From the NCBI GenBank assembly GCA_050084515.1, contig CM114271.1:2232001-2296000 (forward strand): a stretch of 64,000 nucleotides of DNA, read 5' to 3'. The notes beneath the pieces were generated by a model. The model was given only the letters and a program-made list of their open reading frames with translations. It had not been told where the DNA came from and searched no databases. This document shows, piece by piece, positions 9,736 to 31,007 of this stretch (within the stretch, counting starts at the first letter, position 1; every line of letters begins with the position of its first letter). This stretch comes from Blasia pusilla (Eukaryota). A program made the translations under genes and the position numbers.

Positions 9736-9870
9736 TGTTGTGCGCATACATATCGCTACACAACATACATCGCTGGTCGCATCTACACCACACAACGCCG
9801 ATCTTCCTCACACAAGGGTTGATCCACACATGTATAAAAATCAACTCATACATATACATGGAGATCACAC
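9736..9870 (-). repeat. Left terminus of element 1: inverted copy of repeat A (17917-18052)
   Basis: The reverse complement GTGTGATCTCCATGTATATGTATGAG...GTATGCGCACAACA aligns over ~135 bp with 17918-18052. Confidence 0.93.
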
Positions 9871-10559
9871 CTCGGGCCAGCCCCCCCCCCCTCCAACGTG
9901 GTAGGACCGGACGTGGTGGAAGGTCAACGTGGTGACAAGGCTACCAAGTGGGGGTGGATGTGGTGGAGCTGAGTACGTGGTAGGAGTGGAACCATACCAG
10001 GTTGAGTCAGGTTACAGGCCGCGTGTGGGGATAGGCGGAGAGGTTTGCGCGACATGATGTTTTCGGGCATGACGAGGATTTGCGAAAATTGACGATGGAG
10101 TGTCAGTGCGCATGATGCCGACGGGTTGTCCGCATCTGTTGACGGGAGGATCGACCCGTTGGTTGAGGAGAGTGTCGTGTTGCAGAGGTTGCCGTGTCAC
10201 ATGAGGGAATGCGTGTTGACGATGCAGTAGGTTGGAGGGCGTGATCAGGTTACCCATTCGAGTCCTTTTTCGCACTTGTCGTGTGTGATTGAGAGTGTTG
10301 GATATCGGGTAGTAGCTGGTACTAGGTGGGTGCAATGATGGTGACGAGTGTAGATTCTGTTCATGTGTAGCATGTTGGTGGATATACGGCGGTTGCCACA
10401 TAGGGGTCGCATGTATGACCGGAGAGTGTCGCTAGGTTAGGTGAGTAAGTTGGGAGGCTTATGGTGAGCCCGAGTGTCGAGGGTGCATGAGGTCGGGTAT
10501 GTCATCACGAGACTGATGTTAGCATAGGTGAGCTAGTGAGGAGTGTGGGAGACTCTCAG

Positions 10560-12200
10560 TGAGTCTGAGTGCTTGAGCGGATGAGATAGGGTTTGTCATC
10601 ACGGCGTTCTTCCAGGGTTCAGAAGAACAAGGTAGTGCAAGCAGTGGTAGTGGTGTGACACGGAGTGGAGTGAGATACCGAGGGGTTACCAGTGAGGAGC
10701 TACCTTGACATCCATCCGTGGTTGGATCGTCATCACTAGACAATGGGTCTGGTGACAAGATCGCACACAGAGACAGTAGTACTTAGCAAGAGATGGACGA
10801 CATGGGCCATCGGGGCATGCGTCGTTTCTTGAGTGTAGTGGGCACCATCGACTTAGATGATTTTATCGAGGAGTTCGACACATGGTGCAACTTTGAGGAG
10901 ATACGGACTCTGACATGGTTCAACCCTTTCATGGCATGGAAGGGGTTGTTCCAGCACTTGGAGGGTTCTCTGATGGATGACTACATGGAGTTTTGATCAC
11001 TATATTCAGTAGAGATCGATGCCTGGAGGATGTATTGGGCTCTAGGGTATGTGTCCAATAGTGGTCGCGAGGCATATGATGGCATTGTGAGAGGAGAGAG
11101 ACCCACACCATCAGCTCGGAGACTAGATGGAGAGGAGGGCAGTGAGATAGGCAATGTGGTAGAGGCCTCTGGTGGTAGAGGGCCACCCAGCTTCAGGCAT
11201 ATGATGGCACAGAAGTGGAGTTCTTTTGACAGATTGGGGAAGAGCTAGATAGGCGTGTGGTAGAGGACGACAAGTCAAGAGTCTGGTGGATTTTCAGCGA
11301 CGATCGGGTGAGAGTCTGAGAGAGGCATTCACACGCATGAGGAGGTTGATCATTGCTACGTATGGAGTGACTAAGGCACAGTTAGTCCAGTATTGGTATG
11401 GGGTTCTGGATCGAGAACTACGGAGGAGAGTCCGAGATGCGGTGTTGATTCACACAACGAAGCCCACATTGAAGGTGGTCTTTGAGTTGTCTGAGCATAT
11501 TGAGCTCAACATGAGTGAGGAGCAAGTAGTGACCGCTGGATTTTCTCGAGAGTTGACGGGTCCACGAGCGCCGGTGACCCCACAGGTGCCACAGCGAGCA
11601 CCAGTACCACGGGAGCGGGCCAATGTGCCCAGAGAGCAGGGCGGGTACCGTGAGCCTATGAGACATGACCCGTACCTACATATGTTGCCCAACAGGGACC
11701 AATGTGGTCTTGTTGGAGGTGTGGAGGGGCCCATAGGCAGAGAGACTGCCCACAGCATGGGAGAGGACCACAAGCGCCTCCGATTGCTCAAGAGCCACAG
11801 AGGATGGCCCCACCACAACACTCGTGTGACTATTGCCACAGATATGGTCACACTAGGGATAGGTGTTTTGACCTTCGCCGAGAGGCACGTCCAGAGGTAG
11901 GCCAAGGGCTTGGGGGCGGTCGTCCTGGAGGAGGTTGGGGAGTTCTTCCTGGACGTGGTGGTAGGGGACCACCACCAGCCAGAGGAGATGGAGCAGGAGC
12001 ACCAGAGCCGACTCTTCTCTCACGCATCGATCAGTTGGAGTAGAGGATTGCTGCCATGATGATGATGCAGCTTAGGGAAGGCACGGAGCTGCGAGCAACT
12101 AGTGTGACTCCAACTTCTACCTCTTACCCTGACCCGGGTGAGGATCTCACCATTATGGGGTTTATGTGTAGTGCAGCCTAGGTTGAAGCAGCTGTAGTGA
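10560..12200 (+). pseudogene. gag: gag of element 1 with two Zn knuckles
   Basis: Motifs GVTRSGVRYR and DFQRRSGESLREAFTRMRRL, plus knuckles CWRCGGAHRQRDC and CDYCHRYGHTRDRC (ORFs 10793, 11286, 11702). Boundaries approximate. Confidence 0.8.
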
Positions 12201-12709
12201 TGACTCAGGGGGTTGCGAGAGGCACCGAGCCATCGAGAGGAGTTGAGATTGACCCACTAGAGGGGACCGATGGGCGGCAGGCCAGGGTTCCATGGTCATT
12301 CACATTGTCGGAGGCACTACACACACCATCGATGGTGCCTTGACAACCAGCGGTGCCTATAGCTCAGGCATGTGCGTCGACGTCACAAGGAATGGGAGTG
12401 ACAACTCCTATGCCGGCTCGAGTGCAGTCAGTGTCGACCATAGTGTTGGAGGTGGCCACCAGAGTGAGTCAGACTCCACTATTTTCCGCCATAGAGTTGG
12501 CAATGTTAGGAGTTGGACCAGCTGAGGTGTTCCGGCTGGCCGCCACGTTGTGTGAGCGTGGAGAGGTGACTGCTTCTTGTTCAGAAGTAGTTGAGGGGGT
12601 GGTGGACTTGCCCTCAAATTTGGTGCTCGGGACGTTCCCCACAGAGTCGTGGCATGCGGCGGCGACGAAGTTGGTAGACATGCCAGCTTGACCAGCCATA
12701 GAGCGAGCA

Positions 12710-13130
12710 GTGGTGACACCTGGAGTAGTCTTACTGGATAACCGAGCTCGAGTATTTCGCTTGGTTAATCCGACGGGGATAGCATACCACCTGCAGCGCG
12801 TCCTACTTGATTCGGGAGCGCAACCCTTGATGTTAGGGAAGGCGGCGTGTTTAGCATTGGGGTTACAGAAGGCAGACATTGAGCCTTGTCCCTTCCAGAT
12901 ATAGACCTCAATTGGGGGCGTGTCACCCACGCAGTATATGACTCGACAGGAGATAGTTGTTAGAGTCCAGCCAGAGCATGCAACGGATAGTGCTATGGTG
13001 CGCACATGTGCGATTACGACACCAACTGAGTCGTACAATGTGTTGGTGGGTAGTACAGTGTTATATCCCCTAGGATTCATCCTTGACTTCTGGGAGGAGA
13101 CCATTGCTTATCGGCCAGGGTGGCGGTCAA
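12710..13130 (+). pseudogene. retroviral-type aspartic protease of element 1
   Basis: Catalytic RVLLDSGAQ near 12800 and a C-terminal YNVLVG motif. Confidence 0.85.
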
Positions 13131-13524
13131 GTAACGGCCGGATGAGTCAGTTACCCGTGCAGTTTGCGAGACGAGGTGATCGATCACGGGACGAGTCTGT
13201 GACCACGTTGGCAACTTTCACACGTAGTGTTAGCTGGCCAGGAGAATTGTTGGAGGGGAACGCACATGCAGAGGATGTCCCAGTAGCGGATAGTCCCACG
13301 GAGAGACAGGCCATGGCGGGTGTCTCTTCCCATGTTGGCGAGACCTCTTCACCATTGTGGGGTAAGACTCGAGAGCTACAGAGGAGTGCCGACGACCTTG
13401 TGAGGCAGGCGTGGAGTCATGCTTTTATCCCGGAGCAGCGAGAGTCACGTGGCGATCGGGCTCTTGGAGTGGAGACGTTGACCCCACTGGATACCGCACC
13501 CATTGTGTGGCAATGCCCAAAGGA

Positions 13525-14490
13525 GGGTGTTAGGGTGTTAGATCTCTTTGGAGGGATTAGCACCGGATTGGTTGCAGTATTGCAGGCGGGCATATGGGTG
13601 CATCAGTACCTTTATGTGGAGAGAGATGAGACCCCGCGGCGAGTATCATTACGTCACGTGGCAAGATTGGTCTAGAGGTATCTTGAGTTGTTGCCGGTAT
13701 CTGCAATACGGGGATATCAGCATACACTACCCGCCGACATCTCTTTGGTGGGGGTGCAGGATCTGGACAGAGTTGGCACCATTCATTTGGTGATTGCTGG
13801 ATGGCCATGTCAGGGTCATTCATCAGTTGGCCGAGGATTTGGATTGCAGGATCCGAGGTCAGGGATGTTTTGGGAGATGTTTTGCGAGTAGTACGACATT
13901 TGGAGGGGAGTCAGACATGTTCTCCAACATACATTTTGGAGAACGTGCCGTTGTTGGAAGACACTCGTGCACGTGTGATGATGAGTGTGCATCAGGTGAG
14001 GTCCTGGTTGGGACCTGATGTGTTGCTAGATGCGGCGAGAGTTGGATCACGTGCCCATCGTCCACGACTGTGGTGGACGAACCTGATACCATCAGAGGTA
14101 CTGAGTTGAGCATACGATGGAGTCCAGAGAGCACCACATCTCATAGTGGATGCTATTTTGGGCTCAGGGCAACGATCTCAAGTGGTGACACGGGATGATA
14201 GACCACCGTTGGCCATGGCCAATAGGGTGGGGGAGTTGAGGGCAGCCTTACCTACGTTGGTGAGCTTCCCAACATCCCATACCTTTCATTAGGGAGGGCC
14301 AGGCATGATTTGGGATGAGATGACCGGAGCATTGGAGGAGCCTACAGCAGATGAGGGCGAGCGCGCCATGGGGTTCGTTACCGATACTACAGCGGTGCTA
14401 GGGATGATTGAGGCATCCTGGAGACAGGTGTTGGGGCAGGAAATGGACCTCAACTGTCTCACATGGATAGTCAGCCTAGGTATGGCTGAG
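13525..14490 (+). pseudogene. C5 DNA cytosine methyltransferase domain (DNMT3-like) within pol of element 1
   Basis: Ordered motifs: I VLDLFGGISTG, II YLYVE, IV IAGWPCQGHS, VI YILENV, VIII AHRPRLWWTNL, IX ERAMGF, X LGQEMD. Interrupted by stops and frameshifts. Confidence 0.9.
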
Positions 14491-14861
14491 CAGAGATGGA
14501 TGCAAGTGTCATCCATGCCGTCACGTCCACGAGTTGGACCATTGCCTACAGGGTCTGTACAGGCATTGGCTGGGGGCGAGACGAGGAGAGATAGGTACCC
14601 ATGGACTTCCTGGGAGGTTGTTCGAGCAGAGAGTGCGAAGGCGGCTAGAGTAGCACATGTTCATTTTTTCGGATGTAGAGCATGGTGTATGAGGTCAGAG
14701 TGGAGTGGCTGTTGCGGAGGTGGCTAGGGTTGCAACATAGCAACCAAAGCCGGAGGCTGTGTCCTCTCCAAGTGAGGTCACGATGGAGACTTGGGAGCCT
14801 ATGATAGGTCTCAAGTTGATAGGAGGAGAGCGACGGTGAGTTCATAGGTTTCTGAGAGGGC

Positions 14862-16210
14862 ATGTGTTTGCGCACCACGGGTACGCTGAAGGGTCTCGGG
14901 ATACGGATTGAGTTGGCTAGTGATACGCTGATCTTTCGTCGATCCTACAGGTATTCTGATATGGAGCGAGCCTTGATTCAGAGCAAGAGTCAGGACTTGT
15001 TGGAGGCAGGACTTGTGGAGTTATCACATGGGGAGTATGCATCTGCCACAATCATGCCGGCCAAGAAGGATATGTATGGCAATTGGACGGATAGGCGGAT
15101 GTGTGGAGATTACCGTCCTATCGACCGACAGACGAGGTCAGATCAGTACGCCATGCCTACTCCTGAGGAGATCTTTGATGCGGTAGGGCATGCAAAGATC
15201 TTTAGTACTTTAGATCTCCAAGCTGGCTATCATCAGCTTCCTATCAGGTTGGAGGACAGGGACAAGACAACATTCTGGGGGATAGATCGGTTCGAGAGAG
15301 ATTGCTCGTATCAGTGACGGTTCTTACCATTTGGGTTGAAGAACGCGCTTGCAGAGAGTTATGGATAGGATTCTAGCTGGCTTGGATTTTGTACGATGTT
15401 ACATAGATGATATTCTTATCTTCAATTCCACGATTGAGGAGCAAGAGTGACACCTAGAGGAGGTGTTCTGGCGATTGCAGTTACATGGACTGAAGTTACA
15501 TCCAGGCAAGTGCAGATTCTTTCAGGAGCAGATTGAGTACTTGGGACACACCATATACCCGAGTGGGTTAGGCGTTCAGCACACGAAGGTAGAGGCTATT
15601 GCGCAGATTCCACGCCCTACAAATGTGAGTCAAGTCTGAGCATTTCTTGGACTGGCGAACTTCTATCAACGGTATGTCAAGGGTTTTAGTGCGATAGCAA
15701 AGTCTTTGACCTTGTTGACGAGACTTGATCAGGTTTGGTTGTGGGGAAATGATCAGGGGCGAGCATTTCAAGAGCTCAAGGATAGGTTGACGTCCTCACC
15801 CATTTTACAGAGACCGGTTAGGGGTTGCCTATTCCAGTTACATACGGATTCGAGCATGTTGGGTCTAGGAGCACTGCTTACTCAGAGGGATGACGAGGAG
15901 AGGGAGTTCGTTGTGGCTTACGCGAGCCGATCGAACAACATTGCAGAGTCGAAGTACAGCTCCTACGAGGGAGAGTGCTTGGATGCAATGTGGGTTGTGG
16001 CACATTTCATATGCTATTTATTTGGAAACCCTTTCACACTTATCATTGATCATCAGCCGTTGAGGTAGTTGATGGAGTCTGACAAGCTTACGGGAAAACT
16101 TGCCAGATGGGCTCTATTACTACAGGAGTATGAGTTTGAGGTGGTTCATAGGCCAGGTCGGCTGAACCAGGATGCGGATGGGTTGAGTTGTAACCCATGT
16201 CCGAGTCAGA
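14862..16210 (+). pseudogene. reverse transcriptase and RNase H of element 1
   Basis: RT motifs RMCGDYRP, FSTLDLQAGYHQ, LPFGLKNA and CYIDD (~15397-15411). RNase H motifs FQLHTD, YEGECL, IDHQPL, NQDADGLS. Confidence 0.93.
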
Positions 16211-16559
16211 GAGACAACACAGGAGCTCGATGGCACGGAGAGAGTGATGAGGAGATGATGCCCGGTTGGCATGCATCTGCCTATCTTTGTTGGTTGACTA
16301 TGGCAAGTCAGCCACATGTGATGACTCCAGTGGTGGGGTTGGATGATGAGTCTTTGGATCCAGAGGTCAATGAGGAGGCGACAGGTGGTCGTGATATCCA
16401 TGACGACATGGAGGTTGTGGAGTTCTTGCGCACTGGCATCATAGCGAGCACAGTGAGTGCTAGGGAGCGGGATCGGATCCTACAGAGAGCCAGGAGGTTC
16501 AGGTGGGAGGGGACTCACATTTTGCGGGTATGGGGAGATGGTAGGATACGAGTGGTACC

Positions 16560-17833
16560 TCATCCTTCCCAGCGAGCACGTGTAGTGCGACATACCCATG
16601 AGGAGTTGGGACATTTGGAGTAAAGCGTACTTACAGCTAACTCCAGATTCAGTATTGGTGGCGCGGCATGCATACTGGGGTACAGTAGTTTGTGGCCAGA
16701 TGTATGGTATATGATAGAGTGCGAGCATCCTTCAATGCTCCCACTCCGCAGTTACATCCCTTGCCGATTATGGGTTTAGGTTATCGGTGGAGTTTAGACT
16801 TTGCGGGACCTTTGTCATTGACGGGGCGTCATCATAGATACGTGTTGGTCATGGTGGAGCATTTCTCCAAGTGGATAGAGTTGGTGGCACTATCGGACAA
16901 GGCGATCGAGGGAACAACTTATGTGTTTCTAGATCGTGTGCTTAGTCACTTTGGTGCACCGGCGGAGGTGTTGACTGACCAGGGTACGGAGTTTAGAGGA
17001 GAGTTTCAAGCATTATAGATCAGGCGCTGATAGATCACCGCACCACGTCCAAAGATCATCCTGAGGCGGATGGGTTGGCGGAGAGAGTGGTACAGACGGT
17101 GAAGAGAGGATTTCGCAAGTATGGCTTGCAACGGGGACAGTTGAGGGAGTGGGACCTACAGTTGTCATGGTTGGCTATGGGTTATCGCTTTAGTCGGCAG
17201 GCATCCTTGGCGTCATTTTCACCGTACTTTTTGCTCTTTGGGAGAGAGCCAAATTTACCTGTAGCGATTCGACGTGACATGGAAGAGGTATTAGATCTTG
17301 ATGATCAAGATGTGTGGGTACAAGCATGTTCTCAGAGGGCGGAGGTTATTCGTAGAGTTATGCCTATGGCCTTTGAGAACTTAGCTATTGCTCACCATAG
17401 AGATACATTGAGGTACACGACCATTTGTGGAGGAGATTATCGTCTAGGGATTAGGAGGTTTCATCCTAGAGACTACGTGTATTTATAGCAGGCGACATCC
17501 ACGACGCTAGATGTCATTGCAGGGCGCACGATCCTATGTGTGCGCGAGGTATTATCGACCGGAGTCCTCATGTTGGAGGGACGGGATGGTATGGTTTGGA
17601 AGGATCATGTGCGCAATTGTGTGCCATGTCATCTTCCGAACGTAGATGGGACAGTGGATCCGAGCTTGGAAGTGGTACCTACAGACTTGAGGTGTATGTT
17701 GTGTGGATCTGCGAGGGGTGCAGCCACCATGTTGGTATGTGATGGTTGTTCTCGAGGATGGCATATGTCATGTATGACCCCCCCCCCCCTCTTGATGTAG
17801 TTCCCACAGAACGATGGATTTGTCTGAGATGTG
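16560..17833 (+). pseudogene. DDE integrase with C-terminal PHD finger of element 1
   Basis: HHCC-type HEELGH...C region, core WSLDFAGP / LTDQGTEF / GLAERVV, then C4HC3 PHD CMLC...CDGC...WHMSC...WICLRC (17692-17833). Confidence 0.9.
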
Positions 17834-17916
17834 TACAGGGTAGTAGGTCATGTCAGAGAGATGTGATATTTTCTATCTGGAGTTGGAGGGATCCAACTGC
17901 CAACTAGGGGGGCGGT

Positions 17917-18254
17917 TGTGTGATCTCCATGTATATGTATGAGTTGATTTTTGTACATGTGTGGATCAATCCGTGTGTGGGGAAGATCGGTATTTTGTGG
18001 TGTAGATGTGACCAGCAATGTATGTTGTGTAGCGATATGTATGCGCATGACAACTGTCACATCTGAGTAGCTGATAGGCCGAGATCTATCGTGGATAGAG
18101 CGTAGGAGCCAACAGACTATCTTGAGTGTAACTTTGTCCCACGGTGTCGAATGAGGTTGAGGATAGGTCCATTATGTCAGGAACGACGTTCCTAACACAA
18201 TATCCACGCTCTATCCACGATAGATCTCGGCCTATCGGCTACTCAGAAGTGACA
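17917..18254 (+). repeat. 3' region of element 1: A (17917-18052), AC spacer, B (18055-18103), 102-bp spacer, inverted B (18206-18254)
   Basis: The 49-bp B arms match as an inverted repeat with 2 mismatches. Junction reads CATGACA-AC-TGTCAC. Confidence 0.93.
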
Positions 18255-20190: not shown

Positions 20191-21221
20191 AACTATGCAA
20201 AATCTAACTTCGAACCTCTTGTTTTAATTCATACTAGTATCATGCATGTGTTATGCATGGACGAGGGAAAAATTTTCCTAGCACCCCTTAAGTCTTTAGC
20301 CCTTTTTATTGAACTACTCTTACAATATAGCATGTGTCAACAATAGAAAATCTTTCAAAAGATATGTGTCAACAGTAGAGGAGGGTTTCTCCAACCCCAC
20401 CATATGTTAAAATTAAAATTTTAAAAATTTATTTGACCCAAAAGTTTTATTTTTTCTGAAACGTGTCGTGCGAATCCACATCGTCATACAACATACATCG
20501 CTGACATACCATATTCACATACATACATAACATAGACGAGAGCATCCACAAACACAAGTGTACCACGACTGAAATCCGTGTAAGACCTACTGTCATAAAA
20601 CACGTATAGAATCACATACAATCGAGCCAAACCCACTCCACAATGGAAGAATCCAGGTCGAAGCTTGTGGGAGCCACCATAGCCAAGAGCTCTACTCACT
20701 ACCAAGGCTAACTCCCAACGCAATAGGCTCAAATCAAAGAACTAACTGTTCTTTGAGTGCACTCCACACTATATCCTCCAACCTAAGAGTGGGCTCTACT
20801 GGAAAAGTTATCCTCAACTAAGTAACCCCCAACCTTATGTATAAAACCGCATCTCTACCTAGACACTACGGCCCTACATAAGGTATGGCCTCTACTAGCA
20901 CACTATACTCTACGACATAATCCGTATGGTCATGACAGCTGTCGTGCAAATCCACATCGTCATACAATATACGTCGTTGACATACCATACTCACATACAT
21001 ACATAACATAGAAGAGAGCATCCACAAACATAAGTATACCACAACTCGCCCCCCTTACTGGCGGTTAGATCCCTCTAACTCCCAAGTAGCCCTATACATC
21101 TACTACATGCTATACACCTTCGTGGGTGCACGAATCAGAAGGCCGGATGCTAGGTTGCCCCATCGTAAGTCGCACATCTGTAATCCATATCATGCAAAGA
21201 TCAAGTCATCTACCTCTCCTA

Positions 21222-22165
21222 AATACATCAAGGACAAACCCACCTTCCAGTAGGAACAACATCCATACGTGGAGTCAAACACATCATGTGCCAACCCCTA
21301 GAACACCGATCACACACCAACATACGGGTTGCGTTACCAACAGACCCACACAACATGCACCTCAAGCTAGCACGTATCATGGCTAAGCTTGGGTCAACAG
21401 TACCATCTACATTTGGAATATGACATGGCGCACAATTACGTACGTGGTCCTTCCAAAAAACTCCATCACGACCCTCCAACATGAGAACTCCAGAAGCTAA
21501 CACCTCGTGCACTCGTAAAATAGTGCGGCCTGCCGTCACATCCAACGTTGTTGGTGCAATCTGCTGCAAATAGACATAGTCCCCCACATGGAACCTACAA
21601 ATCGATGGTCGATAACCTCCACCCCGAATGGTTGCATTCCGCAACGTATCCCTGTGTTGAGCAATGGCGAGGTTCTCAAAGGCTGTTGGCATAACTCTCC
21701 AAAAGAGCTCTGCCCGCTGAGAACACACTCTCATCCACATCTCTGGGTCATCAAGGTTCACCACCTCACTGGACTTCCGACAATTCTTCTTTGGCAAGTC
21801 CGGATCTTGGCCATATAACGTAAAAATAAGGTGAGAAGGAAGCCAAGGATGCTTGGCGATCGACCTATACCCCATGGCTAACCATGGCAACCGAATATCC
21901 CAGTCTCAAGATGCCCCTTCTGTAGGCCATACTTGCGCAATGCCCTCTTCACCGTCTGAACCACACGCTCAGCCAAACCATCCGCCTCTGGATGATCTCG
22001 AGACGTGGTCCGATGATCAATCAACGCCTTGTCATACATGACCTGAAACTCACCCTGAAACTCTGTACCCTGGTCGGTCAGCACTTTAGCTTGTGCACCA
22101 AAATGACTAAGCACTCTATCAAGAAACGCATACGTCGTTCCCTCACTTGCCTTGTCAGGTAATGC
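21222..22165 (-). pseudogene. integrase core, C-terminus and PHD finger of element 2
   Basis: LTDQGTEF...GLAERVV; PHD CMLCGSVGNATRMLVCDRCSRGWHMMC...WVCP*C. Confidence 0.9.
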
Positions 22166-22980
22166 TACCTCCGATAGTAGTTTGCCAATCCCATGAATGC
22201 CCGAACTCTACTCACATCTGTCGGACGCGGAATAAGTGCAATAGCGTCCACCTTTGCTTGCTGAACTCCCAAACCACCTGGATAGATCACATGACCCAAG
22301 TACTCAACATCCTCATGGAAGAACTTACACTTTCCTGGATGCAAACGTAGACCATGAGCTTTCAACCGCTCAAACACAATCTACAAATGTATCTGATGCT
22401 CCTCCACCATGTTACTGAACACCAAGATATCATCAATGTAACATCGAACAAAATCCAACCCTGCTAGGATCCTGTCCATCACTCTCTGAAACTCGGCAGG
22501 TGCATTCTTCAACCCAAAGGGTAAGAATTTCCATTGGTACAAACAATCCTTGCCATGAGAGTTGACACCCCAAAATGTTGTCTTGGCCTTGTCACTCTCT
22601 CGAATCGGCAATTCATGGTATCCTGCCAGAAGATCCAAAGTATTGAAAATCTTTGCCTGTCCCACCACATCAAAGATCTCCTCAGGTGTAGGCATGGCAT
22701 ACCTATCGGCCTTGGTTTGCCGATTGATAGGACGGTAATCTCCACACATCCGCATATCCGTCTAGTTGCCATGCATATCCTTTTTAGTAGGCATAACAGT
22801 GGCTTATGCATACTCTCCATGCGACAAATCCACTAATCTAGCCTCCAAAAGGTCCAACGTCCTACTCTGAATCAGGTCCCTCTCCATATCACTATATCGG
22901 TAGGGACGACGAAAGATTGGCATATCATTAGCCAAATCAATCCGTATATCGGGTCCAACCAAAACACCCAACTCCTTCAT
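22165..22980 (-). pseudogene. reverse transcriptase of element 2
   Basis: RMCGDYRP, LPFGLKNAP, CYIDD, EYLGH, GLANYYRR. Confidence 0.93.
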
Positions 22981-23369
22981 GCTAAAGGCAAAACAACTCT
23001 TATAAGCATATAGGAACTCTGTCAAGCGTCGTTTCTCACCTCCCGTAAGCTTGGGCCCAAGTAATGGCTCCCAAGTCTCCTCCACTGATACACTAGAGGG
23101 AGAGGACAATGCCATTGGTCGCACATAACCCCTCACAAGATGGTACACCCTTAGCTACACCATCAGCTGAGCAAATAACTCCTCCACCAGCATGAGCAAC
23201 CAACTCCACATGCCCAGCCATTACATCCCATTTACTCCAAGGATGCAAAATACTACTCTCCTCGCCCCCAACCGATGCCTCTACCGTCGCGGTAGCCATC
23301 GAGCTCATCACAAGGGGTGGAAGACCCACAGACATAGTCCGAAGTCGACGCTGCTCGGCCATACCAAGA

Positions 23370-24330
23370 CTCAAAATCCAAGTCAAACAATTCAGGTCCA
23401 TGGCCTAACCCAACACATGAGGTCGTGAAGCCTCAGAAATGGAAGCAACCGCTGTCACACTAGTAGCAAATCCCATTGCACGCTCTCTCTCATCAGTGTT
23501 AGGCTCCACCAACTATCGCACATGAGAATCCCATACAAGCCCGGGACCACCTTCCCTGTAGGTATGTGACGAGGGAAAACTCACAAATGTGGGTAGTGCC
23601 ATCCTAGGCTGGCCCACACGGTTCACCACTGCCATGGGTGACCGATCAATAACCCTCACCACCTGAGAAAGTCGCCCAGTATCCAAGATACTATCCATTG
23701 TAAGGCAAGGTTCCCACTGCACTGCATCATATGCTCGACGTAGAACCTCCCTAGGCAACAAGTTTGTCCACCACAAGCGTGGACGATGTGCACGCGAGCC
23801 AACTTGCGCTGCATCCAACAACACCGCTGGTCCAATCCAAGACCGCACCTCATGAACACTTGCCATCATCCGGATCCGAGTGTCACCAACAATGGAACAT
23901 TCTCCAGAATGTAAGATGGAGCACGTGCTTGATGAACCTGAAGATGTCGTAACACCCGTAACATCTCCCAAAATAATCGAGACCTAGGGTCGTGTAATCC
24001 CTCAATACGACCAGTACGTGTATGACCCTGACATGGCCATCTCGCAATCACCAAATCCACAGGACCAACCCTCTCAAGGTCCTGCGCCCCCAACAATGCA
24101 ATGTGTGACGGCAAAGCATGCTGGTATCCACGAATAGCTAATGGCGGCAACAACTCAGGATATCTCCGCATCAACTGACCAATATGTCGGGATGAGACTC
24201 TCTGGGCCGTCTCATCTTGCTCCACATACACGTATCTCCGCACAAGAATACCGGCCTGCAACATTGCAGCCAAACTAGTGCTAATTCCACCAAAGAGATC
24301 TAACACACAAATGCCCTCCAAATGGATCTT
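23370..24330 (-). pseudogene. C5 DNA cytosine methyltransferase domain of element 2
   Basis: VLDLFGGIS, YVYVE, DLVIARWPCQG, YILENV, AHRPRLWWTNL, ERAMGF and LGQAMD in order. Confidence 0.9.
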
Positions 24331-24682
24331 CGCCATACAATGGGTGTAGTATCCAAAGGGGATAACCCAACTGGACCAGAAGTAGGAGTCCGCCATGGGG
24401 ACTCCTCTTCCTCGTGAGGTATAACAGCCTCACACCAAGCCTCCTGCACTAGGCGATCAGCCTCCTGCCATAGTGCACCGCCTGAACTCCAAAGTAGCAC
24501 ATACAACGATGAGGATGCCACAATTTTGTAGCCACTGCTACAAAACTAGGGACCTCCTCTACCTCCTCATGTACAAGAGAATCTACAGCAGAAACATTAT
24601 CCTCCAAAAAGTCTCATGGCCAAGTGACTACTCCACTAAAACCAGCCACAGATGCTAACACCGTTGGGAAAGACCCTCCTGG

Positions 24683-25105
24683 TCAAGCCCCATAAATAAA
24701 TCTCACAGGAACTTGGCTCATACGTCCATCCCCGGACTGCCAACCAGGTCTATAAGACGCTATCTTAGTCCAGTAATCCATATGAAAACCCATCGGGTAC
24801 AATATTGCTCCTCCAACTAGTACATCATACGACTCGGCTGATGTGACCACTATAGGTACTCCCAACCGGGAGCTATCAGTCGCATGATGTGGTCTCAACT
24901 GTACAGAAAACTTCTCCCATGTCATGAATTGAGACCTATCATTGGCTCCTCCAAGTGATGTTTGAATCTGGAATGGGCAAGGCTCAAGCTCTGACCTCCG
25001 AATACCCAAACCAATACATGCCGCCTTTCCCAACATCAAAGGTTGGGCACCAGAGTCTAACAAGACTCTATCTAGTCTATACACCTGTCCTGTAGTACTC
25101 AACAA
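24683..25105 (-). pseudogene. aspartic protease of element 2
   Basis: RVLLDSGAQ...YDVLVGG. Confidence 0.85.
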
Positions 25106-25559
25106 TCAGAATATCCCACTCCGGTTGTCCAACATACATACACCAAGTGTAAGCCTCTTACAATCAATGGCTGGCTGGGCTGGTAATGCATCCATCTTTG
25201 CCGCTGCTGCCTACCAAGTAGCACTAGTACTCAATGCTACACCTGACATAGAGGGTCGCTCCACCACAACACCATCATCCACCTCAGCACATGTAGCAGT
25301 AACACCCCCACGTTCACACAACGTGGCTGCTAGCTGAAATACATGAGCTAAGTCAACTCCTAAAGCCATCACCGTGGGCAGAAAAACAATGGGAATCCTA
25401 ACACCGAAGTTGCCATCCACAATATCAAGATGGATGCTACATCCATGTCTACTACACGCGATGTAGATGCCTCAGTCCCCACTGTAGGCTCAATAGGCTG
25501 CGTAGGAACCATGGATGGAGTCCTAAGCACCTTAGACAACAAGAATGATTGGGGAAGCC

Positions 25560-27208
25560 CAGCCTACCTCCCAGCCTCACCCCTCTGTGGGTCCAACTCC
25601 ACAGTAGCACCAAGTAGCTCTGACGCTCGAGTGGCCTCTCGTAACTGCAGCTGATGCCTTAACCTGTGGTGCACTCGCCATATAAGAGAGATGATCCCCT
25701 CCATAAGAGGTGGAAGCCCCTGCTCCCGAACCTGCTCTATCCTGGATACCAGCCATAGTAGCCAACTTCTGCTCCAACTGCTAAATCTTGGCAGCCATAG
25801 CTGACTCTGTCGTAGTGGTAGGGGTAGCCACCGTAGGCTCTCCAACCACAAGTCCACCTCTACCACCTCTACCACCTCGACCTCTCGGAGCTACTCCACC
25901 ACGGCCGCGGCCTGATCTCAACTCTGGATGAAGATCAAAGCAACGCTCTCGAGGATGACCTGGTCTCCCGCAATGATCACACTGAGTTGGGGCCGACTGA
26001 GGCCCATCCTCCAAAGTCCGTCTCCCATCCTCTTGGGGACAAAACCTCTTAACATGATCACCTCCACACGTCCAACATGACTGTCCTTGCTGCGGGGCAG
26101 CAAATGAAGGCAATGGTCTCTGCGCAAGTGTCCCTCTAGGACCTGACTAAGGTTGTGTGTACCCCCCACCACTCCCACTACTACTACTACCACCACCACT
26201 ACTACGAGAATGTGAGGTGGACTGCTTAACACGAGAAGTAGTAGTTGTATCCCTACTGAATGTGGATGTCACCACTCTCTCCTCCACTATGTTAAGCTCA
26301 ATCGTCTCAGATAGAGCAAACACATGGGTCAATGTGGATGAATCATCACTCATAAGAGTAGCATCACGTACCCTGTGGCGCAACTCTTTGTCCAAGATCC
26401 CATACCAAAACTGGACTGCCTAAGCCTCAGTCACATCCTGGGTAACTGAAATCAAGCGTCGCATACGAATGTAAGCCTCACGAAGACTCTCACCAGTCTT
26501 TCGCTCAAATTCCTGAAGACTTCTCAACTTCTCTGTCTTCACTCCTTGATAGTTCTTCTTCAACCTCTTGAAGAACTCTGCAACCGGGTTGAACGATGGT
26601 GGGGCACTAGTACCTCCACTAGTACCCCCACTAGTACCTCCATGGGTACCTCCACTGGTACCCCCACTCCGGCTCGTACTCGTACCACTCAACGTCGGGT
26701 TGGCTGGCATAGTAGGAGCACTACTACCAATACCACCATGGGTGATAGACACATAGCCTGGAGACCAATATTGTCTCCACGCCTCAATCTCAGCACCATG
26801 GTCCTTCCTAAACTCATGGTAATCATCCATGGGTGGTCCCTCCAAGTGCTGAAACAACCCCTTCCAAGCCAAGAAGGGTGTAAAAAATGTGGCGTTTTGC
26901 AACATTTGCATATCACACCACGTATCAAACTCCTGCATGAAGTTCTCCAACTCAATGGTGCCCACTGCACCCGAGTATCGTCGTGGGCCCTTCATGGCCC
27001 CATATATCCCGTCCATGTCCCAAATCAATGGAACTGCAACACTCGATAACAACGTAGAAGACTCGGTGTTTGGAACGCCCTCGTCCTCCTCTTCTTCAAT
27101 CGTCGGAAGTGGAAAAGGTAGCCGATACCTCAATCCACTCCGTGTGAAACCACCAGTGTCCGCACCACGGTCCCCAACCAGACCACCAGACAGCTCCGTG
27201 ATGACCAA
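25560..27208 (-). pseudogene. gag: gag of element 2
   Basis: ORF 26420-27208 (GGFTRSGLRYR...FERKTGESLREAYIRMRRL) and knuckles CWTCGGDHVKRFC and CDHCGRPGHPRERC. Confidence 0.82.
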
Positions 27209-29226
27209 CGCCGATGCCGCACCACCATCAAAAAGTAACCAAGTGACGTCGATGCCGCTGTACTATTCTAGCTCTACTAGCTATGGATGTAGGCAACCTA
27301 ACCTGTCATCACCACAAGAAGCCCCCCACGGTCTACTGGTCATCACTCCAGCCTCACTATTGGTAGCATACAGGAGTAACACTACTCTGGAAATCAGCGT
27401 CAACCCTAACAATGGGCGCGCAAGCAAGAAGCATCGATGGAGGGGATCCAAATACAGGATGTCCAACGACAATCCTCCAATCACAAATGGAAATCAAGGT
27501 AACACAATCCACCAAACGTGGCGCCCCCTGAATCCACAGAACCCACCACACAATTCTAACGTAATAGCTACTCCGCCGCGGGTCGATGACGTGCTAGTCG
27601 GACTCGCAGCACCTGAAAATATCACATGCATGGAGAGGCTACACCATACTATGCGTTAGAGGTCCATCAACCAAAAACCTGAGATGCATAAAACGCCTAA
27701 CACATCTCCAAACAACACCAAATGAGCTACACCAGTGTGTACACTAGCATAGTTAAGAACTTAGCAGTTAAGCGTCTTCTAGGCAGAATAGCCCAAAGAT
27801 GGGTGATCAGTTATGCAACACTCAAATCAAAAATCTTGCAAAAAATGCCTCACGCCCAAGCAAGCAAGTTTGCTTGCTTGCTCCTTACTCCGCCTCTCAC
27901 GCCCTCACGCCCACTCGCCCACTCGCCCCGAGCTACCACAAGTTGCCTCGAAGCCTCGAAGTCTCGAAATGCTTGAGACTTACCCCTATCGCCACGCTTT
28001 GTCATGCTTCGCTATGGAGAGAGGCCCAACCAGGGCACCCCCAACGGGATAGGCATCTCCAACAATAGACGAATCACCAACCAACCAGCCCCTCCGATCT
28101 GCTGTCCACCATAGCCAGACCTTGAGCTAGTCCGCAAAATTTTGATCAGCAATTACTCCACAAATCCTTGACCAAAATTGAATCTATTTCAACCAAAATT
28201 CAATTGATCACCATAGCTATCTCTCCACAAAGAATCAGCTTCAACCAAGCTCTGTACTTTGAGCTAAAAATCAGACAAACTTGCTGTCCATACACCTCCG
28301 AAATTGCAAATCCGACAGCGCTTCTGCCCAGATTCATGCACGCAAAAATCCGCAAGGCTCCACACACTCAAGCAGATAGCTTCACATGAGATCACAATAC
28401 AAGTAGCAATAGGAACCTCTCACCCGATCTGGATGAACTTCAACAGAGCTTCCGCACTCCAAGCTCTCCACATCAGAAAACCGCCGAATACGAACCAGAA
28501 TCTTCAATCCTTGATAACTTCCAACTCCCTTGACGGAATCCGGTGATCTAAAGCGCGGTGGAAAGCTCTCAGCAAGGCGCTTCTTTCCCAACCAACCACG
28601 CACCAGATTCCCACCTCCAACATAGGCCAAAAGCCACGAACATCCACTGTTGATTACACAATCAGCCCTAACAAGATCCTATTGATCAACAATCGAAGCT
28701 ACCATCGATCTACTCTAGTTCTTTGAATGAAATCCGTATAAGACCTACTGTCATAAAACACGTATAGAATCACATACAATCGAGCCAAACCCACTCCACT
28801 ATGGGAGAATCCCTGTCGAAGCTTGCGGGAGCCACCATAGCCAAGAGCTCTACTCACTACCAAGGCTAACTTCCAACGCAACAGGCTCAACTCAAAAAAC
28901 TTATTGTTCTTTGAGTGCACTCCACACTATATCCTCCAACCTAAGAGCGGGCCCTACTGGAAAAGCCACCCTCAACGGAGTAACCCCCAACCCTATGTAT
29001 GAAATCGCATCTCTACCTAGACACTACGGCCCTACATAAGGTATGGCCTCTACTAGCATACTATACTCTACGACATAATCCGTATGGTCATGATAAACGT
29101 AACTTAAAAAATCCTTCCCAATCAAGCTTGAAAATTCTTTAAGAGAATCACAAAATATTTTTTAATGATGTGGAAAAAAAATTTGATTGAAGAAGTCTTG
29201 AGAAAAAATAAAAGATATTCTTATTA

Positions 29227-29760
29227 TCTATATTATTATTGGAAAATGCCTCTTCATTTTGTAAGCTCCTCTCCTCTTGATACTTGGCATTTTCAGCCAA
29301 TGGGATCATTTGCATTATGGGCCAATAAGATTCTCAAAATTGATTTAAATGACATTTGAAAACTGTGAGATTTAATTAGGAGACGTATTATAAACATGTA
29401 CATTCCACAGGCTTATACCAGTTATTATTGTTGGAGAGAGCCGTTTCATTTTGCAAACTCCTCTCCTCTTGACACTTGGTACTTTCATCCAATAAGATTT
29501 CTTGTCTTCTAAGCCAATATGATCGCTCGGAATTGACTTTAAATGGCACTTGAGAATTTTGAGAGTTAATTTTTTTAAGAAATAATTTAAACTTGTGTAT
29601 CCGATGAGCTTACACTAGTTATTATTATTGTAGAGTTCTCTTTGGGTTCTAAAGACCTCTCCTAGTGCCCTTTTGATTTTTCAAACACCTCTCCTCGTGA
29701 CATATGGTATGTTTAGCCAATTAGGTATGTACATGTGCCTTTGGATAATTTAGAATTAAT
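29227..29760 (+). repeat. Head-to-tail array of three ~195-bp Helitron-like units
   Basis: First unit starts A|TCTATATTATTA. Units share CTCCTCTTGA(C/T)ACTTGG...CCAAT, and the first two end ...TATACCAG and ...TACACTAG. Confidence 0.55.

Positions 29761-30213: not shown

Positions 30214-31007
<794 letters not shown>

Follow-up and report, generated by a model that had tools for sequence, protein, structure and literature searches.

Organization of the element

The window analysed here, a 64,000-nucleotide stretch of the Blasia pusilla contig CM114271.1, contains on its minus strand (positions 20464-29095) a dead copy, with an internal deletion, of a retrotransposon of the Ty3/Gypsy lineage belonging to a family of bryophyte-type genomes. 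Read in sense, along the minus strand, its order is CGTT-B(29095-28729)-PBS-gag-PR-DNMT-RT-(1.2 kb deletion)-IN-PHD-PPT-A(21046-20940)-GC-B(20937-20571)-A(20570-20464)-CGTT. Its features are listed below; copies 1 and 3 are two further copies in the window, and L054 is a near-intact relative.

29096-29099, minus: 4-bp target site duplication (TSD), 5' copy, CGTT in sense; sequence, same as 20460-20463
28729-29095, minus: B1, 5' repeat, starting TATCATGACC.. (TATCA) and ending ..GGATTTC, with no A after it; 93.5% identical to B2
28715-28728, minus: PBS-like ATTCAAAGAACTAG directly after B1, complement of AGTTCTTTGA in mid-B2; sequence, with family-wide complementarity and covariation
27263-28714, minus: long untranslated leader; no long sense ORF, RNA depth 6-38
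26420-27262, minus: gag-like ORF piece, 280 aa; no Pfam family, assigned from its place in the element and its resemblance to gag of copies 1 and 3
25781-26146, minus: ORF piece with two CCHC zinc knuckles, CWTCGGDHVKRFC and CDHCGRPGHPRERC; translation, no Pfam match at E ≤ 0.01
24683-25105, minus: aspartic protease piece (LLDSGAQ); translation, L054 counterpart matching Asp_protease_2 at 2e-4, under the cut-off
23513-24429, minus: C5 cytosine DNA methyltransferase (Dnmt3-like) in two frame pieces; PF00145, 1.5e-7
22381-23154, minus: reverse transcriptase (RT) pieces; PF00078, 3.1e-19
22166-22173, minus: site of an internal deletion of about 1.2 kb; copy 1 positions 15668-16882 lack a counterpart here
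21228-22207, minus: integrase core remnant, integrase C-terminal region and PHD finger; rve 2.5e-5 (under the cut-off), PHD 1.6e-9
21047-21054, minus: polypurine tract (PPT) GGGGGGCG; sequence
20940-21046, minus: A1, internal A copy, ending ..CACGACA; 91.6% identical to A2
20938-20939, minus: 2-bp spacer GC in the head-to-tail joint gACA-GC-TGTc; sequence
20571-20937, minus: B2, 3' B copy, starting TGTCA (TGTCATGACC..); blastn and sequence
20734-20743, minus: AGTTCTTTGA within B2, complementary to the PBS-like sequence and presumed to act as self-primer; sequence, relatives having the complement at the same position
20464-20570, minus: A2, terminal A copy, ending ..CACGACA; blastn and sequence
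20460-20463, minus: 4-bp TSD, 3' copy; sequence

When the window was compared with itself by blastn, B aligned at 20567-20935 and 28725-29093 (369 nt) and A at 20464-20570 and 20940-21046 (107 nt), in agreement with a separate repeat search; given their lengths and identities, both repeats are far beyond chance. A single A makes the B/A border ambiguous by 1 nt, and the first two bases are TA in the 5' B versus TG in the 3' B. The TSD is real, reading AACG on the plus strand (29099-29096 and 20463-20460), with the 3' flank tcag following CGTT. The initial annotation had placed the B...A-B-A repeats correctly to within 1 nt, and repeat alignment, boundary reading and domains confirm its combination of this layout with a DDE integrase and a 4-bp TSD. 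It had also described a 5' end devoid of A, which was borne out: the sequence next to the 5' B is PBS-like and not A.

The Pfam search of the 10 ORF pieces of the element detected the methyltransferase, RT and PHD domains and the sub-threshold integrase core listed above, and 6 of the 10 pieces had no Pfam family. The reading frame is broken into pieces and about 1.2 kb is missing, which indicates that the copy is dead. Relative to copy 1, the blastn gap (at 22170-22172) has removed the end of RT, RNase H and the integrase N-terminus, and RNA reads of relatives leave the copy as loose ends at 22166 and 22169. L054 retains DNA_methylase, RVT_1, RT_RNaseH, Integrase_H2C2, rve and PHD in this order, and a domain search found no tyrosine recombinase (Phage_integrase domain) in it. 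The solved structure nearest to its Pol is Ty3 Gag-Pol (7q5b, E 4.4e-98), and those nearest to its methyltransferase are DNMT3A/B (E 1e-5). The coding order of the family is gag, protease, Dnmt3-like C5 methyltransferase, RT, RNase H, DDE integrase and PHD finger. The integrase/PHD region has 202 homologues, many with rve plus PHD. Named homologues come from the liverworts Marchantia polymorpha and Calypogeia fissa and one moss, Sphagnum fallax.

Terminal forms, priming signals and transcription of the family

Distinct ends of related copies were counted on metagenome contigs, covering 80 loci and the window. Among 43 distinct 3' ends, 17 read PPT-A-NN-B-A, 19 carry a single A, 4 are unclear and 3 are of other kinds, and all 18 distinct 5' ends consist of B only, with A before or after it in none. 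The B...A-B-A layout is a family trait rather than a one-off. Form I, to which the 20464-29095 copy belongs, is B-PBS-internal-PPT-A-NN-B-A, and its 17 relatives have 53-84% protein identity to the query; copy 3 has the same layout, with a 5' B lacking A and a 3' B followed by A. Form II is B-PBS-internal-PPT-A and contains no repeats at all. Single-A relatives, which had been overlooked in the initial annotation, are about as numerous as Form I.

The termini of the family are TGTCA at the start of B and TGACA at the end of A, and the internal joint is TGACA-NN-TGTCA; the motif [TC][GA]ACA-NN-T[GA]TCA lies 98-118 nt downstream of the PPT in 22 of the 80 loci. A perfect 4-bp TSD was found in 8 of 11 distinct elements having both termini, both in Form I (CGTT in the present copy, AAGG in L025, CATA in L051, TTTG in L076 and ATCA in copy 3) and in Form II (ACTA in L005, TACA in L017 and TGTG in L060). 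The B2-A2 joint of Form I is uniform (..TTTTC followed by A(G/A)TTGTGG), irregular only in L012 and L056. The spacer NN is more variable than its surroundings, being GC in 8, AC in 3, AT in 1 and TC in 1 of the 13 main-subfamily Form I copies. The majority sequences of the 13 A1 and 13 A2 copies are the same in all 100 shared columns, and identities of the A and B pairs inside elements are similar (91.6/93.5% in the present copy, 94/92% in L025 and 87/87% in L076). Judged from these sequences, A2 appears to be renewed each cycle. Median divergence from the subfamily majority was 7.0% for Form II (n = 15) and 5.1% for Form I (n = 12), a comparison of low power (Mann-Whitney p 0.56), and Form II supplies the two copies with the lowest divergence. 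Form II does not look like simple old decay, and is equally explicable by post-insertion deletion between A1 and A2.

The G-run PPT adjoins A and in most relatives lies about 177 nt beyond the end of the ORF. Of 13 elements tested, 6 contain in mid-B an exact reverse complement, at least 11 nt long, of the PBS that follows the 5' B; by our own estimate, chance would give about 0.002 such matches per element. Three lineages carry three different PBS/mid-B pairs (ACTCAAAGAACTAT, AATCACCAAAAGT and ACAAAGAGAGA), which amounts to compensatory covariation. Complementarity to mid-B together with covariation between lineages indicates a putative self-priming of the Tf1 type. From the placing of PBS and PPT, the LTR that they delimit is A-NN-B, and the integrated copies are a rotated version.

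Two stranded RNA runs reveal that the family is transcribed in sense. The reads stem from other copies, being at least 99% alike to this one in only 17 of 3942 and 22 of 3763 cases, and a pile-up of 31 of 104 molecules begins at 28934 (position 162 of B), which may mark either a 5' or a 3' RNA end. With reads placed competitively between both A and both B copies, depth in 300-nt bins was 113/181 for PPT plus A1, 36/53 for B2 and 4.8/7.4 for A2 plus flank in the two runs; from this drop across B2 and A2, most transcripts appear to stop short of A2.

Possible origin of the split repeats

The best explanation, which we put forward tentatively, is a decayed Ty3/Gypsy copy with an A-NN-B LTR whose integrase cuts the joints, with a joined-end intermediate for Form I; the mechanism would probably be integrase cutting of a joined-LTR intermediate. 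Reverse transcription would be classical, the minus strand being primed beside the B end by a mid-B RNA stretch paired with the PBS, as in Tf1, and the plus strand beginning at the G-run PPT directly before A, so that the RT-made LTR would be A-NN-B and the linear cDNA [A-NN-B]-internal-[A-NN-B]. The integrase would then use as ends not those of the LTR but TGACA-NN-TGTCA, the head-to-tail joint some 110 nt into the LTR, a joint which resembles two processed integrase ends overlapped via 2-nt overhangs. Cutting both LTR joints, or the one joint of a 1-LTR circle, would yield Form II. Form I alone keeps a whole LTR and the 3' R and would therefore alone be able to found the next generation. It would require an intermediate whose right cDNA end (the B end) is joined to the left end (the A start), a step that we infer and that could come from LTR-LTR circularisation or an end-to-end RT jump, after which integrase would cut the joint adjoining the PBS. 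The methyltransferase and PHD finger are putative passenger modules, with chromatin or methylation at copies or close by as their probable target.

Under a symmetric circle model, B-A-NN-B...A, the mirror form, should be as frequent as Form I; the 18 distinct 5' ends, and the 80 loci and the window as a whole, yielded no case of it, so that asymmetry must be assumed. The uniform B2-A2 joint would be more in keeping with a step that is templated or enzymatically exact than with sloppy end-joining, and the variability of the NN spacer is unexplained by the joined-LTR model.

Asymmetry arises naturally in an alternative that we consider unlikely, in which end regeneration of the PAT/Ngaro/DIRS type is combined with a DDE integrase. 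The outer portions of the element would be missing from the genomic RNA, the internal A-NN-B would serve as a bridge or template completing the (single-stranded) cDNA ends, like the DIRS internal complementary region (ICR), and the completed molecule, ending in TGTCA/TGACA, would be inserted by integrase. The absence of the mirror form matches this scheme, as do the layout, which with letters swapped is exactly the A1...B1-A2-B2 of split-direct-repeat elements, the two termini lying head to tail in the internal joint, and RNA seemingly without A2 coverage. For DIRS-1, the ICR is reported to be experimentally required to reconstitute full-length elements, and the cDNA to be linear and single-stranded (PMC7192593). 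However, the family has the full classical signal set (a PPT preceding A and, following B, a PBS that covaries and self-primes), which the DIRS scheme does not need; its RT/RNase H is nearest to Ty3, L054 has no tyrosine recombinase, and the bridging steps would all be conjectural, none having been observed. The initial annotation had proposed Gypsy-like enzymes and DDE integration with DIRS-like end regeneration; the enzymes and the integration stand, but the regeneration is not supported, the priming signals being those of a classical LTR retrotransposon.

It is improbable that A2 is inherited via RNA, with a transcript running through B2 and A2 and the minus strand started from the A2 end or beyond by a non-classical primer; the cDNA would be B...A-NN-B-A from the start and integrase would merely trim normal ends. 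Templated copying would give the uniform joint of 15 of 17 Form I copies, and the last approximately 42 nt of A could, from sequence, form a hairpin (TGTCAGCGA...TCGCACGACA). RNA depth over A2 is low yet above zero, but that of A2 plus flank is 20-30 times below A1, and some of it comes from A1-NN-B reads of other subfamilies; 31 loose ends at 20464 (X23) run on as NN+TGTCAC... Separately inherited copies should diverge, yet A1 and A2 have no position-specific differences. The left end would need a primer ending exactly before B, but none is visible and the sequence before B2 is not purine-rich, and the covarying PBS beside B would be left without a role.

A one-off rearrangement of an ordinary Gypsy element with two B+A LTRs, its 5' A lost and an extra A gained by local duplication or nesting, would suit an old and damaged copy (repeats 92-93% alike, broken frames and a 1.2 kb deletion) but has virtually no probability left, refuted as it is by the census of related ends, in which 17 distinct relatives and copy 3 share the layout, no relative has B+A at the 5' end and the PPT-A and B-PBS adjacencies are conserved. 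Two complete B+A LTRs in most copies, the outcome that the initial annotation had set against its own reading, did not appear (0/18 5' ends with A and 17/43 3' ends of Form I).

Comparison with known systems

The hybrid is not as novel as initially supposed, since a combination of Gypsy, Dnmt3 and DIRS-type repeats already appears in de Mendoza et al. (2018, Nat Commun 9:1341, PMC5890265; Fig. 4c legend), where KnitGypsy-Dnmt3 of Klebsormidium nitens has Gypsy domains, Dnmt3 in Pol and a 'structure of repeats the same as a DIRS retrotransposon'. The main text of that paper makes no mention of a PHD finger, TSDs, terminal motifs, the internal joint, priming or a single-A form, and a 2026 preprint treats 'streptophytes (Gypsy-DNMT3)' as already described. 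In these sources, the split-repeat Gypsy layout was noted once, in a green alga, without explanation. By description, KnitGypsy-Dnmt3 shares with the Blasia family a Gypsy-type Pol and a Dnmt3-related methyltransferase inside the polyprotein. Its host is a charophyte alga, whereas the named relatives of the present family are from liverworts and a moss.

With PAT, Ngaro and TOC1 (DIRS order), the family shares split direct repeats, A1...B1-A2-B2, with an internal stretch holding both termini. To our knowledge, elements of this type make no target duplications. They encode a tyrosine recombinase, whereas the present family has a DDE integrase (H2C2 plus rve) and, in L054, no Phage_integrase domain; it also differs in its 4-bp TSDs, TG..CA termini, Ty3-like RT/RNase H and classically placed PPT and PBS. 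With the self-priming chromoviruses Tf1/sushi and Tcn1, it shares a PBS complementary to its own 5' LTR region and not to a tRNA; most plant Tcn1 elements, from moss and club-moss, are described as lacking tRNA PBSs and predicted to self-prime (Neumann et al. 2019, PMC6317226). Compared with these, it has a PHD finger where the chromodomain stands at the integrase C-terminus, a methyltransferase between protease and RT, and split terminal repeats.

The Troyka group, named in the initial annotation as possibly having split repeats, is instead defined by 3-bp TSDs and 5'-CG..CG-3' termini in animals, and its abstract and introduction do not mention split repeats (Kojima 2025, J Gen Virol, PMC12440569). 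A Gypsy-like lineage and non-canonical ends are common to both, but 4-bp TSDs and TG..CA termini set the present family apart, and on TSD length and termini as defined there membership in Troyka is rejected.

In circle junctions of bacterial insertion sequences of the IS3, IS30 and IS256 types and in the palindromic junction of retroviral 2-LTR circles, two transposase or integrase ends meet head to tail across a few base pairs of spacer and form a substrate of a DDE enzyme. Those junctions exist only in extrachromosomal intermediates, whereas in the present family the joint lies permanently inside the integrated element and is, by analogy, a candidate integrase substrate.

Split direct repeats in the target element and its family

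The target element, at 20464-29095 of the window with its sense on the minus strand, had been read in an initial annotation as a DDE-integrase retroelement with split direct repeats (B...A-B-A), a 4-bp target site duplication (TSD), and a 5' end lacking A. BLASTN of the window against itself aligned 20567-20935 with 28725-29093 as the B pair (93.5% over 369 nt) and 20464-20570 with 20940-21046 as the A pair (91.6% over 107 nt). Together with a reading of the sense strand, these alignments bore out the split layout and the repeat positions, and both the 4-bp duplication and the 5' end without A are real.

Features of the target element in sense order
5' flank, minus strand: ..aCGTT, read from the sequence
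29095-28729, minus strand: B1, starts TATCATGACC
Directly after B1, minus strand: sequence resembling a primer-binding site (PBS), ATTCAAAGAACTAG
After the PBS-like sequence, minus strand: leader, 1.45 kb
Coding region, minus strand: gag-like ORF, CCHC knuckles, protease (LLDSGAQ), DNMT, RT, integrase remnant, and PHD finger, in this order
21054-21047, minus strand: polypurine tract (PPT), GGGGGGCG
21046-20940, minus strand: A1, ends CACGACA
Between A1 and B2, minus strand: spacer GC
20937-20571, minus strand: B2, starts TGTCATGACC
20570-20464, minus strand: A2, ends CACGACA, followed by CGTT and then flank

This arrangement, B-PBS-internal-PPT-A-NN-B-A with NN as the 2-nt spacer, is referred to here as Form I, and B-PBS-internal-PPT-A is referred to as Form II. 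The reading frames of the target are broken. Among its 10 ORF pieces, PHD, RVT_1, and DNA_methylase exceeded the Pfam cutoffs, rve fell below its cutoff, and six pieces had no Pfam match. Relative to copy 1, a family member in the same window, about 1.2 kb covering the RT end, RNase H, and the integrase N terminus is absent at 22170-22172. The target copy is dead and, for its family, ordinary. Within the final ~42 nt of A (20464-20505, and likewise in A1) lies an imperfect inverted repeat, TGTCAGCGA ... TCGCACGACA, so that A holds a second TGTCA oriented as at the start of B.

The window contains two further decayed copies on the plus strand, approximately 75% identical to the target, plus an RT fragment. 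Copy 1 (9885-18052) retains RNase H and the integrase N terminus and ends with the PPT (GGGGGGCG) and then A (17917-18052, ending GCATGACA), with nothing after it; no B on either side and no similarity to the leader were found for it in the window, and it is Form II-like. At its 5' border, 9741-9885 holds an A in inverted orientation, 93% alike to 17918-18047, and after it a C11 run that would be an inverted PPT; this stretch may be a fragment of an oppositely oriented 3' end or a snap-back product. Directly past the A of copy 1, an element of about 200 bp (18055-18254) with terminal inverted repeats of 48 to 53 nt (TGTCACATCTGAGTAGC...) and AC on both flanks looks like a MITE. Copy 3 (48928-57767) has a 5' B (48928-49196) followed by a PBS-like sequence and a 3' B (57386-57639, 97.6% identical to the 5' B) followed by A (57640-57767). 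It is flanked by a 7-nt match, TACATCA (48921-48927 and 57768-57774), and a deletion running from the integrase C terminus over PHD, the PPT, and A1 has taken the initial 17 nt of B as well; what is left fits the family layout. The isolated RT fragment (48094-48420) is 90% identical to copy 3 (54856-55181) and lies ~500 nt upstream of the 5' B of that copy. A (TG)n microsatellite of about 216 nt occupies 30556-30771, and a plus-strand A-like sequence at 30896-31006, ending GCACGACA and 81% alike to the A of copy 1, may be a solo B-A or the remnant of another copy's 3' end.

An alignment of the integrase-PHD region was used to collect relatives from metagenome contigs. Of the 600 candidate stretches, 550 passed confirmation, and the 80 best served as loci. 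The family is thus abundant in bryophyte-type genomes, with these 550 stretches coming from one metagenome scan and very many pieces present in the contigs of DNA runs. Enough sequence past the ORF was available in 53 of the 80 loci, which gave 43 distinct 3' ends after near-identical ones were merged. Form I ends (PPT-A-NN-B-A) made up 17 of the 43, or 16 if L022 and L051, which have common flanks, are one insertion. Form II ends, in which PPT-A is followed by unrelated sequence, made up 19, a partial or unrecognizable A was present in 4, and the remaining 3 (L007/L010, L054, and L074) had other arrangements. The 5' B was visible in 19 loci and two window copies, representing 18 distinct 5' ends, and stood alone each time, with A neither before nor after it in any of the 18. 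The split direct repeats of the PAT/Ngaro type (A1...B1-A2-B2) are therefore present in the target and in 17 of 43 related 3' ends, and the layout is a family trait. Two complete, identical B+A LTRs at both ends, as in typical Gypsy elements, were not what most copies in the census had, because related 5' ends are B only and 3' ends are A-NN-B-A or A only. A one-off rearrangement of the target copy, with next to no probability left to it, is excluded by this census.

Two loci were considered and rejected as evidence for standard LTRs or derived forms. In L054, PPT-A-NN-B is not followed by A, and B continues into the PBS and leader; two B copies were probably collapsed in the assembly of a multicopy element. 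In L032/L041, the ORF end is joined to approximately position 177 of B and then to A, which was rejected as a propagated derivative without A1, being one locus seen twice (same flanks, two assemblies).

Coding content and integration

L054 is a nearly intact relative with two long ORFs in one frame and a single stop between them. The first ORF contains a weak aspartic protease match (Asp_protease_2) and DNA_methylase, and the second contains RVT_1, RT_RNaseH, Integrase_H2C2, rve, and PHD. The Pol order of Gypsy elements, protease-RT-RNase H-integrase, is thus present in L054 and, in pieces, in the target, and in both the DNMT (PF00145) sits between protease and RT in the polyprotein. The DDE integrase domains rve and Integrase_H2C2 are present, and no tyrosine recombinase (PF00589) was found at an E value of ≤0.01 in the two ORFs of L054 or in the 10 ORF pieces of the target. 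The best match of the L054 Pol among solved structures was the Ty3 Gag-Pol (7q5b; E value, 4.4e-98), followed by the Ty3 RT (4ol8; 8.2e-75), with caulimovirus and retroviruses far weaker. By these matches, RT/RNase H and integrase appear closest to those of Gypsy-type elements among solved structures. The solved structures closest to the methyltransferase part of L054 were DNMT3A/3B/3C, with E values of about 1e-5. Named homologues of the protease-DNMT and integrase-PHD parts came from Marchantia polymorpha, Calypogeia fissa, and Sphagnum fallax, where they are annotated as "hypothetical" or "PHD-type domain" proteins, and many more homologues are unnamed; a protein atlas search returned generic DNA methylase clusters only. 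The lone in-frame stop of L054 (5083-5085) splits gag-PR-DNMT (1,369 amino acids) from RT-RH-IN-PHD (1,047 amino acids) and may either be programmed for read-through or stem from one mutation. Predicted proteins of relatives (P0001 and P0002) likewise end near this position.

Both termini are visible in 11 distinct elements, of which 8 have a perfect 4-bp TSD and three (L006, L061, and L068) have none.

Target site duplications of Form I and Form II elements
Form I: target, CGTT; L025, AAGG; L051/L022, CATA; L075/L076, TTTG; copy 3, ATCA (within the 7-nt match)
Form II: L005, ACTA; L017, TACA; L060, TGTG

The termini are 5'-TGTCA...TGACA-3', in agreement with the TG..CA ends and 4- to 6-bp TSDs of Gypsy elements. 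Inside Form I, the end of A1 adjoins the start of B2 as TGACA-NN-TGTCA, where NN is GC in the target, and a degenerate version of this joint occurs 98 to 118 nt past the PPT in 22 of the 80 loci. The NN spacer is more variable than its surroundings. TSDs, termini, and joint are those of DDE-type integration of a molecule beginning at B and finishing at A.

Priming, transcripts, and regeneration of the ends

In most loci, a run of at least five G's (six in most copies) lies ~177 nt past the ORF end, directly before A. As in Gypsy elements, the PPT adjoins A1 and the PBS adjoins B1. No tRNA-type PBS follows the 5' B; the sequence there has its exact reverse complement in the middle of B, and in the target, it pairs with AGTTCTTTGA in the 3' B.

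Exact complements between the PBS and B
14 nt, mid-B: L025, L055
13 nt, mid-B: L076, L068
11 nt, mid-B: copy 3, L047
9 nt, mid-B: L005
8 nt, other position in B, probably chance: L067

Of 13 elements, 6 thus have exact complements of 11 to 14 nt, which share one position in B and covary between lineages, and five decayed copies had no exact complement of at least 8 nt between PBS and B. By our own estimate, ~0.002 exact matches of at least 11 nt per element are expected by chance. Three lineages have three different sequence pairs, which indicates compensatory change. Priming in the family is predicted from these pairs to be self-priming of the Tf1 type, a mechanism known from that element. 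Self-priming has been predicted for most plant Tcn1 elements, found in moss and club-moss (PMC6317226). L007 (3361-3878) and L010 (1412-1929) contain a complete PPT-A-NN-B followed by an inverted B(1-180), which begins exactly at the PBS-complementary stretch and finishes at the TGTCA terminus. They were rejected as evidence for standard LTRs, since the arrangement looks like an aberrant snap-back product; it would be expected if plus-strand synthesis continued into a long self-primer and looks like a fossil of aberrant self-priming.

When the LTR is taken to run from just past the PPT to just before the PBS, the PPT before A and the PBS after B define the reverse-transcribed LTR as A-NN-B. 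Form I (B...A-NN-B-A) would then correspond to the expected [A-NN-B]...[A-NN-B] minus the left A-NN and with an A added at the right.

In the main subfamily, the majority sequence of 13 A1 copies matches that of 13 A2 copies in each of the 100 columns they share, and the divergence of A pairs within elements is about equal to that of B pairs, which indicates that both pairs are LTR-like, i.e., identical at insertion. A nearest-neighbor test says little about the pairing of A1 with A2, since all copies lie close to one master sequence; among 36 A copies, only 9 had their own partner as the nearest. In 15 of 17 Form I copies, the B2|A2 joint uniformly reads ..TTTTC|A(G/A)TTGTGG. The G/A at the second base of A2, common to six copies, was rejected as a sign of separate A2 inheritance, as the site mutates recurrently: L032 and L041, which have common flanks and represent one insertion in two assemblies, differ there.

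Two DNA runs (contigs) and two stranded RNA runs (raw reads; X22 and X23) with the same species label were mapped to 20300-29300 at ≥85% likeness. In total, 179,918 and 4,448 DNA contig pieces and 3,942 and 3,763 RNA reads mapped. Only 17 and 22 RNA reads were ≥99% alike, which indicates that the RNA stems from relatives and not from the target copy. Nearly all RNA came from one strand (first mate on plus), the sense strand under the usual library chemistry.

RNA depth in 300-nt bins, with the two A copies competing for reads, as do the two B copies
5' B: X22, 60; X23, 88
Leader: X22, 16-38; X23, 6-18
Integrase-PHD: X22, 150; X23, 165
PPT+A1: X22, 113; X23, 181
B2: X22, 36; X23, 53
A2+flank: X22, 4.8; X23, 7.4

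Loose read ends at 20464 run on as NN plus TGTCAC, so part of the low A2 RNA belongs to A1-NN-B of other subfamilies. Given this and the fall in depth over B2 and A2, most transcripts seem to end inside B2, like those of ordinary LTR elements, and to lack A2. That A2 is nevertheless templated and inherited through read-through RNA is improbable. In X22, 31 of 104 RNA molecules begin at 28934, position 162 of the 5' B, which may mark either a 5' or a 3' end of the RNA; it lies 18 nt upstream of a hairpin holding the primer stretch, and X23 lists no such pileup. Some DNA contigs connect A1 with A2 positions (20498->20977 and similar), with only 20 to 26 letters on the shorter side of the joint, too few to separate the two forms. 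A few RNA reads (4 and 3 in the two runs) connect 26930 directly with 21609, leaving out 5.3 kb between gag and the integrase C terminus without GT..AG ends, and probably represent an expressed deletion derivative.

The family is a tractable case for end regeneration, with the PPT, the covarying self-primer, the internal joint, and two integrated forms readable from sequence and RNA in available data. Direct observations comprise both integrated forms, their TSDs and termini, the joint, where PPT and PBS lie, and sense RNA. The explanation preferred here, tentatively and as a little short of probable, is that Forms I and II arise from the cutting of joints in an LTR-LTR or circle intermediate. 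Form II would result directly from cuts at both LTR joints of linear cDNA, or from a cut in a 1-LTR circle at its only joint. Form I would require the end of B to be joined to the start of A, i.e., an LTR-LTR joint, which could form by circularization or by an end-to-end jump of RT; cutting of the joined molecule at the joint adjoining the PBS would then give Form I. TGACA-NN-TGTCA has the appearance of two processed integrase ends overlapping by 2-nt overhangs, and it resembles the circle junctions of IS elements. Several points speak against it. Symmetric cutting should also give a mirror form, which did not occur among 18 distinct 5' ends, a precise step is suggested by the uniformity of the B|A joint, and the variability of the NN spacer is left unexplained by joint cutting. 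Form II could also come from a later A1-A2 deletion; however, in a comparison of low power, it is not measurably older than Form I (median divergence, 7.0% versus 5.1%; P = 0.56) and includes the two youngest copies. The initial annotation had proposed DIRS-like end regeneration, and bridging of incomplete cDNA on the internal joint, in the manner of DIRS/PAT elements, is an unlikely alternative to joint cutting; in favor of such bridging is the experimental requirement of the ICR in DIRS-1 (PMC7192593).

An extension of joint cutting, doubtful yet worth stating, is a lineage of DDE-integrase retrotransposons whose integrase ends have moved inside the LTR, and in which productive integration would proceed through a joined-end intermediate cut by integrase, as at IS3/IS30 circle junctions. 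If so, the family would be a living intermediate between LTR-type and DIRS/PAT-type architectures, and split direct repeats would stem from where the ends are cut, not from the use of a tyrosine recombinase.

Comparison with known systems

Split direct repeats are treated as a tyrosine-recombinase signature, and annotation pipelines seek two identical LTRs. The family described here has the split layout together with a DDE integrase, 4-bp TSDs, and classical PPT and PBS signals; the integration enzyme cannot be inferred from repeat layout alone, and LTR finders will miss, truncate, or misclassify elements with split repeats. One Marchantia preprint mentions many retrotransposons of "unknown types."

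The family shares its split direct repeats (A1...B1-A2-B2) with PAT and Ngaro. It differs from the DIRS order (DIRS1, PAT, Ngaro, and TOC1) in having a DDE integrase in place of a tyrosine recombinase and in its 4-bp TSDs, since to our knowledge the DIRS order makes no target site duplication. Like Tf1/sushi and Tcn1 elements, it has a PBS that complements 5' LTR/RNA sequence of the element itself, with priming predicted here from sequence; unlike these chromoviruses, it carries a PHD finger at the integrase C terminus and no chromodomain. The presence of DNMT and PHD modules is relevant to the interplay of transposons with host methylation.

The initial annotation was partly supported: the layout stood, and its suggestions of a link to Troyka and of a novel combination did not. 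Troyka elements, described from animals, have 3-bp TSDs and CG..CG termini (PMC12440569), unlike the 4-bp TSDs and TG..CA termini of the present family. The combination of Gypsy, Dnmt3, and DIRS-like repeats is already in print for Klebsormidium nitens, from which de Mendoza et al. 2018 (PMC5890265) describe KnitGypsy-Dnmt3, a Gypsy element with Dnmt3-related DNMTs in its Pol; the legend to Fig. 4c of that paper reports the repeat structure of a DIRS retrotransposon with Gypsy-typical domains. The present family resembles it in the Dnmt3-related DNMT inside a Gypsy Pol and, by the published description, in the DIRS-like repeat arrangement. PHD, target sites, and chromodomain gave no match in term searches of the main text of PMC5890265, and K. 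nitens was not named among the protein homologue matches. A 2026 preprint lists "streptophytes (Gypsy-DNMT3)" among known cases in one line, and these two sources, as far as the parts consulted go, were the only literature found that deals with split repeats in DDE elements or with bryophyte Gypsy elements carrying DNMT/PHD. In light of the K. nitens legend and the preprint, the target is a bryophyte-side addition to an architecture already in print. The present analysis adds the TSDs and terminal sequences, the joint inside Form I, the predicted self-priming, the form with a single A, and the profile of RNA depth. The family architecture is a real, unexplained, and testable oddity.
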